From contig JAZDDX010000017.1 of assembly GCA_043809315.1 (NCBI GenBank), positions 98,075 through 162,074 on the forward strand: 64,000 bases of DNA, in the 5' to 3' direction. Shown here piece after piece: positions 57,335-64,000 of this stretch. Origin of the DNA: Pseudomonadota bacterium (GTDB lineage: Bacteria; Bdellovibrionota_G; JALEGL01; DATDPG01). Each line of letters begins with the position of its first letter. Position 1 is the first letter of the stretch. Made by a program: the position numbers and the translations under genes. The notes under the pieces are model-generated. The model saw only the letters and a list, made by a program, of their open reading frames with translations. It searched no databases and was not told the origin of the DNA.

Positions 57335-58198
57335 GTGCAGCTTCTGGAGCGGGCGTTCGCCAAGATCAATCTGATCCTCCGGGTCTACGACCGCCGGCCG
57401 GACGGGTTCCACCGGATTGAAACCTTGATGCTCAAAGTCGGTCTGTCCGACGAGATCGAACTCTCGATCGACGAGGGGAGCGAAATCACCGTCACGGTCG
57501 AGGATGCTCCAGATCTGAACGGCAAAGAGAACATCGCCTACCGCTCCGCCTGCGCCTATCTCGAGGAAGCCAGGCTTCGGAAGTCAGTTTCGATCGCAAT
57601 CCAGAAGCAGATCTTCATCGCAGCCGGCCTTGGTGGGGGGAGCAGCGATGCCGCTTCGGTCCTCCTGGCCCTGGAGAGCTGTTTTCGGAAGCTCGGTCCG
57701 GCGAAACTGAGGGAACTGGGGGCCCATTTGGGGAGCGACGTCCCGTTTTTTTTGCAACCGACCGATCTGGCGCTCGGAATCGGGCGGGGGGAGAAGATCG
57801 TCCCGTTCGGAAACCTCCCAAAACGCCCGGTTCTGCTCGTCAACCCGGGGTTCCCGGTCTCGACCAAAACCGCCTACGAACTCCTCGCTCGTCCGTTGAC
57901 TTCGGATGGGGGGGATGGTAGTACCCTCGCCTTCGCGCGGGGACCGGAAAAGTGGAGTGATCTTACGGGGTTACTCGAGCCCCGCAACGATCTCCAGGGA
58001 GTGGTGGAACGGCTTCATCCCGAGATTGCTGCGATCCGGAAACAACTCTCGGATCTCGGAGCGTCGATTTCGCAGATGAGCGGAAGCGGCGGGACGGTTT
58101 TCGGGTTGTTCGATGATTGGAATCTGGCGCGGTCGGCCGAGCGCGAGGTAAAAGGAAGCTGGAAAGCGGTATTGGCGGAAACAGGAGGCACGGCGTAA
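57335..58198 (+). CDS. ispE: 4-diphosphocytidyl-2-C-methyl-D-erythritol kinase
   Basis: AKINLIL...[31 protein letters not shown]. Confidence 0.96.
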
Positions 58199-58213
58199 CG
58201 AAATACGAGCCAT

Positions 58214-58288
58214 TGGGGCGTCGACAAGTGGTAAGTCAACGGCCTTTGGAGCCGTCATTCGGAGGTTCGAATCCTCCCGCCCCAGCCA
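58214..58288 (+). tRNA. tRNA-Gln(TTG)
   Basis: TGGGGCG/CGCCCCA acceptor stem, ACGGC-CTTTGGA-GCCGT anticodon arm, GGTTCGAATCC, CCA; usual ispE-tRNA-prs context. Confidence 0.97.
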
Positions 58289-58307
58289 GTTTGAGAATGA
58301 GAGTCGC

Positions 58308-59246
58308 ATGAGAGAAATGAAAATATTTGCCGGGAACTCGAATCTCTCCTTGGCCAAGAAGATCTGCACGTACCTGGGGAGTCCTCTGGGGACGGCGGTG
58401 GTCAAGAGTTTCAGCGACGGCGAGACCTGGGTTGAGATTGACGAGAACGTCCGTGGGAAGGACGTTTTCATCATCCAATCCACCTCGACCCCGGCCAACG
58501 ATCACCTGATGGAACTCCTCGTGATGATCGACGCGTTCAAGCGGGCGTCGGCCGAGCGGATCACCGCGGTGATTCCGTACTACGGCTACGCACGGCAGGA
58601 CCGGAAGGTCGCTCCGCGCACGCCGATCACCTCGAAGCTCGTGGCCGATCTGCTGACCTCCGCCGGAACGAACCGGGTTCTGGCGATCGATCTCCACGCG
58701 GCGCAGATCCAGGGGTTCTTCAACATCCCGTTCGATCACCTCTACGCCACACCGGTTCTTCTGGATTTCATCCAGTCGATCGGCGGCGGCGAGATCGCGA
58801 TCGTCTCCCCGGATGCGGGGGGCGTGGAGCGTGCGCGGGCGTATGCGAAGAGGCTGAATGCTTCGTTGGCGATCATCGACAAGCGGCGGATCGGGCCGAA
58901 CGTGTCCGAAGTGATGAACGTCATCGGAGAAGTGCGGGGGAAGGTCGCCGTCATCGTCGACGACATCATCGACACGGCGGGGACGCTTACCCAGGCGGTT
59001 CCGGTCCTTCTGGACCGCGGAGCCACCAAGGTTTTCGGTGCGGGTACGCACGCGGTGCTGTCGGGGCCGGCGATCGAGCGGATCAACGAGTCCCCCCTCA
59101 CGGGGATCGGAGTCACCGACACGATCCAGGCACGCGGGGCCGCCGCGACGTGCAAGAAGATTCAATTGTTGTCGGTCGCCGAGCTTCTGGGTGAAGCGAT
59201 CCGCCGGATCCACAACGAGGATTCGGTCAGTACTTTGTTTGTCTAA
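58308..59246 (+). CDS. prs: Ribose-phosphate pyrophosphokinase
   Basis: [44 protein letters not shown]. Confidence 0.98.
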
Positions 59247-59257
59247 AGGAGTCCGCC

Positions 59258-60085
59258 ATGGAAAAGCGTGAGTTGAATGTGGAAGCGAGAAACGTCGGCA
59301 AAGGAGAGACGCATAAGCTCCGTGCCGAGGCGAAGATCCCGGCGGTGTTCTACGGGCCGTACGTCGAAAAGGCGGTCCCGTTGGCAGTGACGTCGACTGA
59401 ACTGTCCAAGGCCCTTGCGGGCGGATCGAATCCGCTCCTTACGCTGCGTGCGAAAGGGCTGGCCGGCATCGATGGGAAAATGGCCATGGTTCGCGATGAG
59501 CAGTTCCACCCGGTCACGATGAAGCGGGTTCACGTCGACTTCATCGAGGTCCGGATGGACGAGGAGATCAAGGTCGAGGTTCGGATCATCCTGACCGGCA
59601 AGGCGGCGGGGGTCGCGGAAGGCGGGATTCTTCAGCAGAGCCTTCGCGAACTCGAAGTCTTCTGTCTCCCGGCGGCGGTTCCGGAGAAGATCGAGGTGGA
59701 TGTCAGCTCCCTCACCATCGGCGACTCGCTGCACATCAGCGATATCACCCTTCCAAAGGGGGTGAGACCGGTTTCGGCGATCAACTACACTCTTGCTGCG
59801 GTGGTTCCGCCCGAGAAGGAAGAGGTCGCCCCGGTGGTTGCAGCCGAGGGTGTGGAGCCGGCGTTGGTCGGTGCGGAAGGCGCGGTCGAAGGTGCGGCTC
59901 CGGCCGAAGGTGCGGCTCCTGGCGCAGCCCCCGCAAAGGGCGCGGCTCCTGGCGCAGCTCCCGCGAAAGCAGCTCCTGGTGCGGCTCCGGCAAAAGGTGC
60001 AGCTCCTGGCGCAGCCCCTGCGAAGGGCGCGGCCCCGGCAGCGAAGGCTGAACCGGCCCGAGTCGAGAAAAAGAAGAAGGAATGA
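59258..60085 (+). CDS. rplY: 50S ribosomal protein bL25/Ctc with Ala/Pro-rich tail
   Basis: IPAVFYG, QFHPV...HVDF, GVAEGGILQ, IEVDVSSLTIGDSLH. Confidence 0.96.
   Translation: MEKRELNVEARNVGKGETHKLRAEAKIPAVFYGPYVEKAVPLAVTSTELSKALAGGSNPLLTLRAKGLAGIDGKMAMVRDEQFHPVTMKRVHVDFIEVRMDEEIKVEVRIILTGKAAGVAEGGILQQSLRELEVFCLPAAVPEKIEVDVSSLTIGDSLHISDITLPKGVRPVSAINYTLAAVVPPEKEEVAPVVAAEGVEPALVGAEGAVEGAAPAEGAAPGAAPAKGAAPGAAPAKAAPGAAPAKGAAPGAAPAKGAAPAAKAEPARVEKKKKE
59891..60037 (+). repeat. Degenerate coding tandem repeat (GAAP / GAAPAK)
   Basis: About ten GAAP-type units in the bL25 tail. Confidence 0.85.
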
Positions 60086-60636
60086 GGCTCGTCGTCGGGC
60101 TTGGGAACCCCGGTTCGGAGTACCAGTACACCCGGCACAATCTCGGGTTCCTGACGATCGACGCCTTTTTCGATCGGATCGGAAAACAGAAAGCCAAGAA
60201 AGTCGTCAACGCCTTCGTCGTCGAACGCGGAGATCTCTGGTTCGCCAAACCTCTCACGTTCATGAACGAGAGTGGGAGGTCGGTCGCGAAGCTCGCCGAG
60301 CGCGCGTCAGCATCCCCGAACGAAACGCTCATCATCCACGACGACGCCGACCTCGAGCCGGGGCAGATCAAACTCAAGAAGGGTGGGGGATCGGGGGGGC
60401 ACAACGGCCTCGAGTCGATCTTCGCCGAGTGGCAGACGCAGGAATTCTGGCGTTTACGGATCGGGATCGGGAAAAACCCGAATCAGGAACTAGCCGATTT
60501 TGTCCTGGAACCGATTTCCTTCAAGAAATTGAAGCCGGTTGCCGAGGCGGCTGCTGATGCGCTCGAGAAGATTTTTGAGCTCGGCCCGGAAAAAGCGATG
60601 AACGCGATCAACGCTCGGGTCAGTAATACAGAATAG
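60082..60636 (+). CDS. pth: Peptidyl-tRNA hydrolase
   Basis: LVVGLGNPG, TRHNLGF, KPLTFMNESG, GGHNGL, RLRIGIG. Confidence 0.97.
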   Translation: MRLVVGLGNPGSEYQYTRHNLGFLTIDAFFDRIGKQKAKKVVNAFVVERGDLWFAKPLTFMNESGRSVAKLAERASASPNETLIIHDDADLEPGQIKLKKGGGSGGHNGLESIFAEWQTQEFWRLRIGIGKNPNQELADFVLEPISFKKLKPVAEAAADALEKIFELGPEKAMNAINARVSNTE

Positions 60637-60642
60637 ACGCGC

Positions 60643-60671
60643 TTGCTTGTGGTGCCGCTTTTTGCTACAAG
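60643..60671 (+). promoter_or_regulatory. Sigma-70-like promoter of the rpsF operon
   Basis: TTGCTT-17-TACAAG with TG extension. Confidence 0.5.
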
Positions 60672-60681
60672 CAGCCCGCTT

Positions 60682-60727
60682 TTCCTCGCTCCGGACAATA
60701 GGGTTTCGGAGCAAACCCATGAGGAGG
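60682..60727 (+). ncRNA. Putative S6:S18 ribosomal-protein leader (cis-regulatory RNA)
   Basis: TTCCTC pairs with the SD GAGGAG; inner stem GCTCCG/CGGAGC; 3' internal loop AAACCCAT contains CCR. Confidence 0.7.
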
Positions 60728-60731
60728 TTTC

Positions 60732-61412
60732 GTGAAGAAGTACGATACGGTTGCGATTCTTCGTCCCGACGCTACGGACGAATACATCGCCGGACTCACC
60801 AAAAAAGTCGAAAAAGTCATCACCACCAAGCCCGGGGAACTCTTGAAGAAAGAGGACTGGGGGATGAAGAAGCTTGCCTACGAGGTGAAGAAACAGAAAC
60901 AGGGTCGGTATCTCTACTGGCACTACAGCCAGGCCGAGAAGGCGCCGGCCGAGGTCGACAAGAAGCTCCGCTTCGAAGAGAACGTCATGCGGTTCGTGAC
61001 GGTGGTGATCGAAGAGAAGACCACCTTCGCCAAGAAAGCCGCCCAACTCGCCAAAGGGACGATGGAGAAAAAGGAACCGTCCGACGGCGACGAGGGGGGG
61101 CCTCGGAAGAGACGGGGACGCGGCCAAGAGAGGCTGACCAAGGTCGATTATAAGGATGCGGCGTTCCTCTCCCGGTTCATCAACGAGCGCGGGAAGATCC
61201 TTCCCCGCCGGATCTCGGGGGTTGATGCCGTTTCGCAGCGCGCGGTGGCGGCTGCCATCAAATTGGCGCGCCAGCTTGCGATCCTGAGCTACACCGAGGG
61301 GTTCTTTACGACCAGTCAAGAGGATCGGGACCGAGATCGCGATCGAGACCGTGACCGGGATCGGGACCGAGATCGCGACCGCGATCGTGGCGAGAGGGGG
61401 GTCGAAGCGTGA
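60732..61412 (+). CDS. rpsF-rpsR: Fused 30S ribosomal proteins bS6-bS18 with (DR)11 tail
   Basis: Residues ~1-95 are S6 ([29 protein letters not shown]). The same frame continues without a stop into S18 ([37 protein letters not shown]). Confidence 0.93.
61323..61388 (+). repeat. Coding repeat (GAY CGN) x11 = (Asp-Arg)11
   Basis: Eleven hexamer units with varied synonymous codons. Confidence 0.95.
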
Positions 61413-61858
61413 AAGTCATTCTCTTAGAGACGGTAAGCAACCTCGGGATGACCGGTGACATCGTCACCGTGAAGCCCAGATACGCGCGGAACTTTCTCCT
61501 TCCGAGGAAAAAGGCGATCGCGGCAGATGCGAGAAGCGTGAAGCACGTCGAGCATCAGAAGCTCGTTCTCGAACACAAGATGAAGAGAGCCAAGAAGGCA
61601 GGCGAGGAGATCCGGAAGACTCTCGAGGCGAAGCCGATCACGATCAAACGTAAGGCGGGGGAAAACGAGAAGTTGTTCGGGGCGGTCACGGCGATCGACA
61701 TCGAGAAATCGCTGGCCGGTGCCGGCGTCATCGTCAGCCGCAAAGGGATCAGCTTGTCGGAGCCGATCAAGAAGCTCGGCACGTACGAAGTCCCCGTCAA
61801 GCTCGACGGTGGCGTCGACGTGAAGATAACGGTTGAGGTCGCGGCCGAACAGGCTTAG
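61409..61858 (+). CDS. rplI: 50S ribosomal protein bL9
   Basis: [42 protein letters not shown]. Confidence 0.97.
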
Positions 61859-61868
61859 TGGAGACGTG

Positions 61869-63215
61869 ATGGCTCCCGAGAGCACATCCCGGATCCCCCC
61901 ACAGAACCTCGAAGCCGAACAATCGGTTCTCGGTGCGATCCTCCTCGACAATGAGGCGGCACACGACGTAACCGAGATCCTCCGGCCGGAGGACTTCTAC
62001 AAGGAAGCTCACCGGCATATCTTCGAGGCGGTGCTGGGTCTTCTCGAACGGAACGAACCGGCCGATCTCGTCACGCTCACCAACGAACTGAAGAAACAGG
62101 GAGAACTCGAATCGATCGGCGGTGCCGCCTATCTGGCGACGCTGGTCGAGGCGGTCCCGACCTCCGCGAGCGTCCTCCATCATGCCCGGATCGTGAAGGA
62201 CAAGGCGACCGTGCGCGAGATCATCCGCGCGGCGAGCGAAATCGCCGAGAACGGATACGAAGGTGGGACCGAGGTGGCGGAGTTCCTCGATCAGGCGGAA
62301 CGGGTCATTTTCCAGGTCTCGGACCGGAACAATCGGAACGCCCTTCTTCCCCTTTCCGAAGCGGTCAAAGATTCATTCATCCAGATCGAGAAGGCGTACG
62401 AGCGGAAGAATCTGATCACCGGGCTTTCGACCGGGTTCAAGGAGATCGACAAGTTCACGTCGGGGTTACAACCCTCCGATCTCATCATCGTGGCGGGGCG
62501 CCCTTCGATGGGGAAGACCTCGCTCTGCCTCAACATCGCCCAGCACGCATCGCTGCACGAGAAGATCCCGGTGGCGGTCTTCTCCCTCGAAATGGCGCGG
62601 GAGCAGCTGGCGATGCGGCTCCTCTGTTCGGACGCGCGGATCGATTCGAACCGGGTCCGGACCGGGATGCTGAGTGAGGACGAGTGGATGCGCCTCACCA
62701 GCAGTGCCGGGACTCTGTCGGAGTCCTCGATCTACATCGACGATACGGCCCAACTGTCGACGTTCGAGATGCGGGCGAAGGCGAGAAGACTCAAGATCGC
62801 GAAAGGTCTCGGCCTTGTCGTCGTCGATTATCTGCAGCTGATGACGGCCCGGGGGAAGGTGGAGAGCCGGGAGCGGGAGATCTCCGACATCTCGCGTTCG
62901 CTCAAAGCGATGGCAAAAGAGTTGAAGGTACCGGTGATCGCCCTCTCGCAGCTCAACCGGGCGGTGGAGTCGCGGAACGACAAGCGGCCGCAGCTGTCCG
63001 ACCTGCGGGAGTCGGGGGCGATCGAACAAGACGCCGACATCGTCGGCTTCATCTACCGCGACGAAGTGTACAACAAAGACAGCCCCGACAAGGGGATCGC
63101 GGAGTTCGCGATCGTCAAACACCGGAACGGGCCGATCGGGACGGCGCGCCTGACCTTCATCCCGGAGTACACGCGGTTCGAGAACCTGGCGTTCGAGTAC
63201 GCCGAAACGAAGTAA
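61869..63215 (+). CDS. dnaB: Replicative DNA helicase DnaB
   Basis: PPQNLEAEQSVLG, AGRPSMGKT, FSLEM, VDYLQLM, LSQLNR, DLRESGAIEQDAD. Confidence 0.98.
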   Translation: MAPESTSRIPPQNLEAEQSVLGAILLDNEAAHDVTEILRPEDFYKEAHRHIFEAVLGLLERNEPADLVTLTNELKKQGELESIGGAAYLATLVEAVPTSASVLHHARIVKDKATVREIIRAASEIAENGYEGGTEVAEFLDQAERVIFQVSDRNNRNALLPLSEAVKDSFIQIEKAYERKNLITGLSTGFKEIDKFTSGLQPSDLIIVAGRPSMGKTSLCLNIAQHASLHEKIPVAVFSLEMAREQLAMRLLCSDARIDSNRVRTGMLSEDEWMRLTSSAGTLSESSIYIDDTAQLSTFEMRAKARRLKIAKGLGLVVVDYLQLMTARGKVESREREISDISRSLKAMAKELKVPVIALSQLNRAVESRNDKRPQLSDLRESGAIEQDADIVGFIYRDEVYNKDSPDKGIAEFAIVKHRNGPIGTARLTFIPEYTRFENLAFEYAETK

Positions 63216-63219
63216 CGTT

Positions 63220-64000
63220 TCAGAGAAGTTTCGTCTGCGCCGGCAACGCGGCGGCGATCCCGTACTCCGTCATCTTCCGCCGGAGCGTGTTCCGGTTGAT
63301 CCCAAGAACTTGCGCCGCGCGGACCTGGTTCCCGCTCGTCTGACGCAGGACCAGCGTGAAGAGGGGGCGCTCGACTCGTTCCAGAACCATCGGATGGAGA
63401 TCTTTCAGGTGTTCGACGCCGAACTTCCGGAAGAGGGCGCCCAACCGCTCCTCGATCAGTCCTTCGAGCGCCTGTTCCTCCCCTTCGATCGCTTGATCCG
63501 GGCGTGACAGGAAGGGGGCCAGGGAGCGGACCGAGATCCGGGTCGAGCCCGCGAGGACGCTGGAGGCGAAAAGGACCCCCTCCAACTCGCGGAGGTTCCC
63601 GGGCCAGTGATGTTCTTGAAGAAGCTTGACCGCGTCCTCGGCGATTCCGGCGTTCCGGACACCGAACTCCCTCGCCAGGCGATCGAGGGCCGAGCGTACG
63701 ATCAGCGGAAAGTCACTTTTCCGCTCCCGGAGTGGCGGGATGAAGAGCGCCGATCTTTTTAGAAGCTTGGCAAGATCGGCGTGGAGCAGGCGCTTGGCCG
63801 GGTCGGATCCACCGGGGGCCTGGATCGTGAATAGGCAGCGGGCGTCCATCTTGACCCGGTCCCCTCCGCCGAGAGGGGAAAAGTTCCGGTTCACGATTGC
63901 GTGCGCCAGCTTCTGTTGGAGGCGACGTGGCAGGTTCTCCACCTCGTCGAAGAGGACCGTTCCGCCACCGGCCATCGCGAAGATCGATCGGGCCGGGGAT
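63220..64000 (-). CDS. Sigma-54-interaction-like / Fis-HTH transcriptional regulator, 3' part (AAA+ looks degenerate)
   Basis: GGTVLFDEV, IPPLRER, WPGNLREL, GNQVRAAQVLGINRNTLRRK. The frame is open to the window edge. Confidence 0.88.
   Translation of the reverse strand, partial: SPARSIFAMAGGGTVLFDEVENLPRRLQQKLAHAIVNRNFSPLGGGDRVKMDARCLFTIQAPGGSDPAKRLLHADLAKLLKRSALFIPPLRERKSDFPLIVRSALDRLAREFGVRNAGIAEDAVKLLQEHHWPGNLRELEGVLFASSVLAGSTRISVRSLAPFLSRPDQAIEGEEQALEGLIEERLGALFRKFGVEHLKDLHPMVLERVERPLFTLVLRQTSGNQVRAAQVLGINRNTLRRKMTEYGIAAALPAQTKLL

Follow-up and report, generated by a model that had tools for sequence, protein, structure and literature searches.

Ribosomal proteins bS6 and bS18 encoded in one open reading frame across most of a bacterial class

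Ribosomal proteins S6 and S18 are a textbook pair that must come together before binding rRNA and that, once paired, represses its own mRNA. According to the available text of PMC3895269, the two proteins heterodimerise before rRNA binding, and S18 gains its solubility from S6. The published rpsF leader, as described in the available portions of three reports (PMC3854524, PMC3895269, and PMC4647458), comprises a hairpin and a bulge whose CCR adjoins the SD, with the SD itself held in helix H1. The CCR bases are contacted by S18 residues K71/R74 in T. thermophilus and K60/R63 in E. coli (available portions of PMC3854524 and PMC4647458).

The same proteins take part in the anti-SD sequestration of Bacteroidia, which involves bS21, bS18, and bS6. 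The available sections of PMC7797042 describe a bS21 with a weakly basic C-terminus and a signature Tyr54, together with signature residues in bS18 (Phe50, Asn56, Gln58, and Lys/Arg37) and in the C-terminal helix of bS6 (Trp100, Arg103, and Lys107).

In the 64,000-nt stretch of DNA analysed here (the window), S6 and S18 occupy one open reading frame (ORF), within the gene order L25/Ctc, pth, fused gene, rplI, dnaB (Table 1). A literature search returned no description of a bacterial S6–S18 fusion; the supplementary alignments of PMC3854524 and PMC3895269, which lay outside that search, might list such genes. The terms “fusion”, “fused”, and “S18” have zero occurrences in PMC3353972, as do “S18”, “bS18”, and “rpsR” in the available part of PMC7203096. 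The architecture is nevertheless already visible in databases and is recurrent, and its class-wide occurrence is modestly surprising.

Table 1. Positions of the fused gene, its parts, its leader, and comparable ORFs (window coordinates unless a locus or contig is named)
Feature	Position	Strand	Details
Candidate rpsF-leader-like RNA (S6:S18 complex-binding motif type)	60683..60734	+	Covariance model, conservation in class
Leader helix H1	CCUC 60684–60687 with GAGG 60721–60724		Predicted to sequester the SD
Leader hairpin H2	60688–60694 with 60706–60712
Leader 3′ bulge AAACCCAU	60713–60720	+	8 nt, contains CCA
SD GAGGAGG	60721–60727	+	Start GTG at 60732
Fused rpsF-rpsR ORF	60732..61412	+	226 aa plus stop, GTG start, single open frame
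bS6 domain, residues 1–95	60732..61016	+	Pfam, pLDDT, Foldseek
Linker, residues 96–133	61017..61130	+	S6 C-terminal tail, then basic S18 N-terminal tail
bS18 core, residues 134–190	61131..61301	+	Invariant K177 and R180; Pfam, PDB S18 chains
C-terminal tail, residues 191–226	61302..61409	+	(DR)n dipeptide repeat; DNA repeat 61323–61387
rplI (bL9)	61409..61858	+	Pfam L9_N and L9_C; start overlaps the stop of the fused gene (GTGA)
Fused ORFs in other phyla	L119 (G231), L121 (G289), L124 (G363), G128:C245:333–815		Unrelated genomes, differing linkers

Anatomy and authenticity of the fused frame

Ribosomal_S6 (PF01250) matched residues 3–91 of the fused protein (E = 1.7e-24, 86.3 bits, profile positions 1–89 of 90) and Ribosomal_S18 (PF01084) matched residues 136–185 (E = 6.6e-21, 74.6 bits, profile positions 3–52 of 52), both above the curated Pfam cut-offs of 27 and 21 bits, respectively. 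The ORF call and these matches agree with the earlier note on this DNA, which had described a single 226-aa ORF with a complete S6, a linker of ∼40 residues, S18, and a C-terminal extension. Its Cys-free S18 core likewise holds, as the 226-aa translation has no cysteine anywhere, and so does its GTGA overlap with rplI: the TGA stop lies at 61410–61412, rplI opens with GTG at 61409, and L9_N aligns from rplI residue 1. This stop/start overlap of 4 nt is found in 6 of the 12 fused genomes.

In a PDB chain alignment, residue 4 of B. subtilis S18 pairs with residue 119 of the fused protein, approximately where a basic S18 N-terminal tail (PRKRRGRG) begins within the linker; the part of the linker that corresponds to the S6 C-terminal tail contains a predicted helix (99–109). 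Because B. subtilis S18 aligns from so early a residue, the chain comprises S6 in full, C-terminal tail included, and S18 in full, basic N-terminal tail included.

AlphaFold2, run on an alignment of 24 sequences, gave pLDDT values of ∼94 for residues 1–95 and ∼88 for the S18 core (pTM 0.63), and values <50 for residues 96–106 and 109–132 of the linker, which is thus predicted to be disordered over ∼40 residues. By Foldseek, the S6 part resembles S6 chains (E down to 4e-10; target-normalised TM-score 0.78–0.92 in the top ten), and PDB S18 chains align to the S18 part with E down to 1.7e-15. No chain covering both domains was present among the best 60 of 123 PDB matches.

The joining and terminal segments vary considerably. 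Linkers across the class are 21–50 aa long, K/E-rich, and poorly conserved. The DNA of the (DR)n tail is a tandem repeat with periods of 6, 12, and 18, and this tail is confined to the window's genome, relatives of 66–74% identity having short tails. Other tails in the class are low-complexity and lineage-specific (e.g. an HS/HG repeat in G005 and a 13-residue duplication in G007), and two metagenome relatives carry EGR/ERG repeats in theirs. Within the S18 core, all 24 fused sequences share K177, A179, and R180 without exception.

Upstream of the L25–pth–rpsFR–rplI–dnaB cluster lies a tRNA gene (58214–58285, +; Rfam tRNA, 62.3 bits). The L25/Ctc gene (59258–60085, +), whose stop overlaps the pth start, encodes L25p at 6–95 and TL5_C at 103–185 (Pfam). 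It also has a C-terminal tail of ∼90 residues with A/P/G/K-rich repeats (GAAPGAAPAK...), so that two ribosomal proteins in the window, this one and S18 with its (DR)n, have expanded low-complexity tails.

A run of seven G at 61094–61100 lies inside the linker, and because of it assembly error was put to the test. An assembly or sequencing artefact, such as an indel in this run or a lost stop, would also fit a source genome that is a metagenome-type assembly of 44 contigs (2.42 Mb, 96% complete). In that whole genome, however, there is one S6 match and one S18 match, both within the fused ORF and neither in a separate gene; the fused ORF is the cell's sole source of bS6 and bS18. Each of four relatives (G003, G004, G007, and G008) likewise has a single S18 match, located in the fused ORF.

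The linker is also spanned, gap-free, by a contig of 579 nt that comes from a different study (run X3, record 17), which aligns to 60828–61396 at ∼89% identity with 63 differences. Of the 16 listed differences in 61010–61148, 13 affect the third base of a codon in the fused frame, the list omitting another 32 differences; this bias shows that the linker is translated in the fused frame in this near relative. Over the C-terminal tail, record 24 of X4 aligns to 61223–61390 with three differences and no gaps.

The same fused frame recurs in twelve independent genomes, among them a genome assembled as one contig (G004), and ten further metagenome proteins, with 57–72% identity to the fused protein, carry both Pfam domains. 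As a control, both domains stood in one open frame at 0 of 80 named other-phylum loci with adjacent rpsF and rpsR, among the matches listed. The S6–S18 fusion is real and not an assembly error, an artefact being improbable in the extreme. The earlier note's view of the fusion as a real trait of the lineage is borne out by the sole-copy status of the ORF and by its presence in 12 of the 13 matching class genomes.

A fused ORF could nonetheless yield separate proteins, either through an internal start at Met111 or through proteolytic cleavage of the linker after folding or assembly. The earlier note had proposed that free S18 could arise from the in-frame ATG at 61062–61064 (Met111), which lies in the linker behind AAAGGGA-CG. 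This residue is close to where an ancestral S18 start would be, given the pairing of B. subtilis residue 4 with residue 119, and in some close relatives the KRRGRG motif is immediately preceded by a Met. The AAGGGA, however, is only 2 nt from the ATG, and Met111 itself is shared by the window with just two of its seven closest metagenome relatives (P0003 and P0007; absent in P0001, P0004, P0006, P0008, and P0009) and is not conserved across the class.

Linkers were parsed in 8 of the 12 fused genes (G003, G011, G008, and G013 left out), and two of these eight, in G007 and G009, contain no in-frame ATG, GTG, or TTG. Because Met111 is unconserved and these two linkers lack start codons, free S18 produced by internal initiation is unlikely as a general feature, and the proposal of a start at 61062 did not hold. 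Cleavage is a possible fate for a linker that is predicted to be disordered and is poorly conserved. Against separate proteins stands the third-position bias in the near relative, which shows translation in the fused frame. We regard the production of two separate proteins, by either route, as improbable overall.

Distribution in the class and beyond the phylum

The class to which the window's genome belongs comprises 15 species genomes in a single order and four families. Thirteen of these gave a match, and in 12 of them, representing all four families, the fused frame is uninterrupted (38–53% identity). The two without a match are G012 (92% complete, 340 contigs), which has no S18 at all, and G014 (58% complete). 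The phylum as a whole has 17 species genomes, and the two outside the class (G015 and G016) have separate rpsF and rpsR.

Within the class, the two genes are separate only in G002, which belongs to the same family as the window's genome (L013, G002:C125, ∼1492–2188). Its S6 gene ends in TAA, after which a GGAGGAGG SD and an ATG open S18 in the +1 frame, and this S18 bears a long extension at its N-terminus and, unlike all fused relatives, the motif GCRFC. The fusion is therefore not obligatory in the lineage. A tree of the S6 and S18 domains places G002 outside the 12 fused sequences, as their sister (UFBoot 95, SH-aLRT 90), and monophyly of its taxonomic family was rejected (p-AU 0.0097; 150 columns, one long outgroup row dropped). 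Because of this placement and this rejection, G002 has either kept the ancestral split state or split again.

Public records label the relatives' proteins “Bdellovibrionales bacterium” or “Oligoflexia bacterium” and name them plain S6 or S18. These names are an annotation problem, as the records in question hold fused proteins.

Beyond the class, we surveyed 401 genomes, 384 of them from other phyla. Fused ORFs are present in at least 4 of these 384 (G231, G289, and G363, which were verified, and G128, from the table alone), and two of the four retain a CxxC-type motif. Among the best 150 representatives at 50% identity, 84 contain both S6 and S18, including some possible frameshift artefacts (P0158, P0168, P0184, and P0228). 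One two-domain cluster of 11 members is labelled Bacteriovoracaceae bacterium. A distinct two-domain group (P0176, P0182, P0194, P0222, P0234, and P0217) has PDWKDP/DWKNP instead of DYKD in its S18 part, and the Bacteriovoracaceae cluster falls within it.

These other database fusions share with the window's protein the order of S6 then S18 in one ORF, but their linkers are unrelated, many retain a CxxC motif, and they are only 28–35% identical to it. Because of the unrelated linkers and low identity, they most likely represent independent events. In 12 of 18 loci inspected, rpsF and rpsR share a reading frame and only one stop codon separates them, in a search that itself favours same-frame pairs; one substitution would therefore be enough to fuse them, which explains the recurrence. 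The fusion is nearly class-wide, but it is a modest variant because similar fusions occur sporadically elsewhere.

The leader RNA and Shine–Dalgarno use

Directly 5′ of the start, the class shares the pattern CCUCGC – hairpin – GC – AAACCCA – GGAGG, and all 13 leader sequences agree at its ACC(C)A and GAGG columns. Ten of the 13 single-sequence MFE folds contain a CCUC:GAGG helix that encloses the hairpin, with an 8-nt 3′ bulge containing CCA. A covariance model built from five sequences (R1) matches 12 of the 13 class loci, missing G006, and gives six weak matches in other phyla (E 0.045–0.85), all of them just upstream of rpsF. When the sequences are aligned by fitting them to this model, base pairing holds in 99.3% of cells and compensatory changes occur in 6 of the 11 pairs, a result that none of 500 shuffles equalled. 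An Rfam scan of 58000–64000 at E ≤ 1 returned only a tRNA and no leader family.

On the protein side, K177 and R180 correspond, by ungapped offsets, to the CCR-contacting residues K71/R74 of T. thermophilus and K60/R63 of E. coli.

Between pth and this leader lies a terminator-like hairpin with a T-run (60639–60664, +), consisting of GCGCTTGCTTGTGGTGC and then CGCTTTTTGC. A promoter search of 60400–62000 yielded no sigma-70-like candidate.

The earlier note had further linked the fusion to SD-less starts. On a related reading, the linker and tail would alter the shape of the platform and make the anti-SD less accessible, as happens in Bacteroidia, which would explain weak SD use. The SD data argue against both. 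All 12 fused genes have strong, GGAGG-type SDs. At the canonical spacing of −14 to −7, GGAG/GAGG enrichment is 3.0-fold in the source genome, and three relatives with the fusion reach 4.1- to 4.6-fold; the proposed link to SD-less starts was not upheld. No 16S rRNA was found in the source genome, and relatives were used instead: the 16S rRNA 3′ ends of three of them with the fusion (G004, G007, and G008) are canonical (...GGATCACCTCCTTT). Bacteroidia also keep a canonical anti-SD, so the 16S 3′ end does not discriminate.

What favours restricted access is the modest SD use seen in a crude count, in which SD-bearing first-start ORFs make up 19–26% in the class against 7–12% in the control interval, with 25–43% in four other-phylum genomes. 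The count took the first in-frame start of ORFs ≥ 150 aa and applied a GC3 filter to GC-rich genomes. The same level is seen, however, in G016, which has separate genes and lies in the same phylum (30% vs 15% in the control, n = 40 ORFs); G002 contributed only 11 ORFs. This hints at a modest reliance on SD that is phylum-wide and independent of the fusion. SD-like motifs precede only about a quarter of first-start ORFs in the class and G016, a lower level than in three of the four other-phylum genomes.

The platform proteins themselves resemble those of Bacteroidia in part. By both sequence and fold, the PDB chain most similar to the S6 part is F. johnsoniae bS6, and the match extends into the C-terminal helix of that protein, where F99 pairs with Trp100 and K102 corresponds, by extrapolation, to Arg103. 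By offset, F145 and N151 correspond to bS18 Phe50 and Asn56, two of the four Bacteroidetes-specific bS18 residues. R153 and Q132, however, do not match the other two, Gln58 and Lys/Arg37, and F99, F145, and N151 are confined to the window's closest relatives and do not extend to the fused class at large. The bS21 (66 aa) has an ordinary basic C-terminal stretch (RRKKKSLLARKRSVKR) in place of the Bacteroidia signature. Restriction of anti-SD access as the explanation for weak SD use is accordingly a very unlikely one.

A narrower proposal is limited to the window's genus-level group, in which the tether and its flanks might have taken on a role in managing the 3′ tail of 16S rRNA, so that they tune SD-dependent initiation. 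The helix following S6 (F99, K101, and K102) and S18 residues F145 and N151 would then mimic part of the Bacteroidia anti-SD pocket, the charged (DR)n tail would lie at the mRNA exit side, and the fused gene, with its strong SD and its leader control, would sense free platform protein in the manner of rpsU in Flavobacteria. We hold this to be highly doubtful.

A proposed tethered heterodimer and its described counterparts

We consider it very probable that the locus encodes a genuine rpsF-rpsR fusion acting as a single-chain S6:S18 heterodimer, whose assembly and autoregulation resemble those of the two separate chains. The S6 stop codon would have been lost, joining the whole of bS6 to the whole of bS18 and giving one chain of ∼25 kDa in which the heterodimer is covalently tethered. 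The two folded domains would dock together and, in the manner of the usual dimer, attach to the central domain of 16S rRNA once S15 has primed it, with the disordered linker remaining on the platform surface. Such a fusion would enforce 1:1 stoichiometry and keep S18 joined to the partner that it needs for solubility.

The fused protein would also bind the leader RNA of its own gene, K177 and R180 of S18 reading the bulged CCA; bound in this way, it would hold the SD in helix H1 and turn translation off. The sequences show the ORF, its conservation and sole-copy status, the leader structure, and the invariant contact residues; from these we infer that the ORF is translated as one chain, that this chain enters the 30S subunit, and that it controls its own synthesis. 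Since the fused ORF is both sole-copy and lineage-wide, ribosomes in this class should carry a single-chain bS6–bS18.

A natural single chain occurring class-wide would mean that S6–S18 pairing can be hard-wired without loss of viability, and the fused protein offers a ready-made tethered construct for studies of assembly and autoregulation. The single-chain S6–S18 is a neat variant that overturns nothing.

Compared with Bacteroidia anti-SD sequestration, as far as the available sections of PMC7797042 describe it, the locus involves the same proteins on the same platform face and shows a partial residue likeness (F99, F145, and N151). What defines the Bacteroidia system, its bS21 signature and a lack of SD across the genome, is absent here.

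The leader is comparable with its published counterpart, the rpsF leader or S6S18CBM, in the available portions of the reports on it (Matelska 2013, PMC3854524; Fu 2014, PMC3895269; Babina 2015, PMC4647458). Both have a hairpin of variable length, and in both H1 pairs with the SD and the element stands immediately upstream of the rpsF start. The 3′ bulge here is 8 nt long and holds a conserved CC-purine just 5′ of the SD, the bulged loop of the published motif being 8–23 nt. The two differ in spacing, the CCA lying 0–1 nt before GAGG/GGAGG here and 2–3 nt in the published motif (available text of PMC3854524), and in the regulator, which here would be a single chain and in the published system is a two-chain complex.

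A further close counterpart is the canonical bS6:bS18 heterodimer, formed by the separate products of rpsF and rpsR and represented by the S15–S6–S18–rRNA complex (PDB 1G1X). Both domains are complete here too, and the locus keeps the rpsF-rpsR-rplI-dnaB order, the leader RNA, and the S18 Lys/Arg that read the CCR. In contrast to the canonical pair, the fused gene encodes one polypeptide, in which a stretch predicted to be disordered connects the C-terminus of S6 with the N-terminal tail of S18; its S18 N-terminal motif lacks cysteine, whereas the split relative G002 keeps GCRFC; and it ends in a low-complexity C-terminal tail that varies among lineages.
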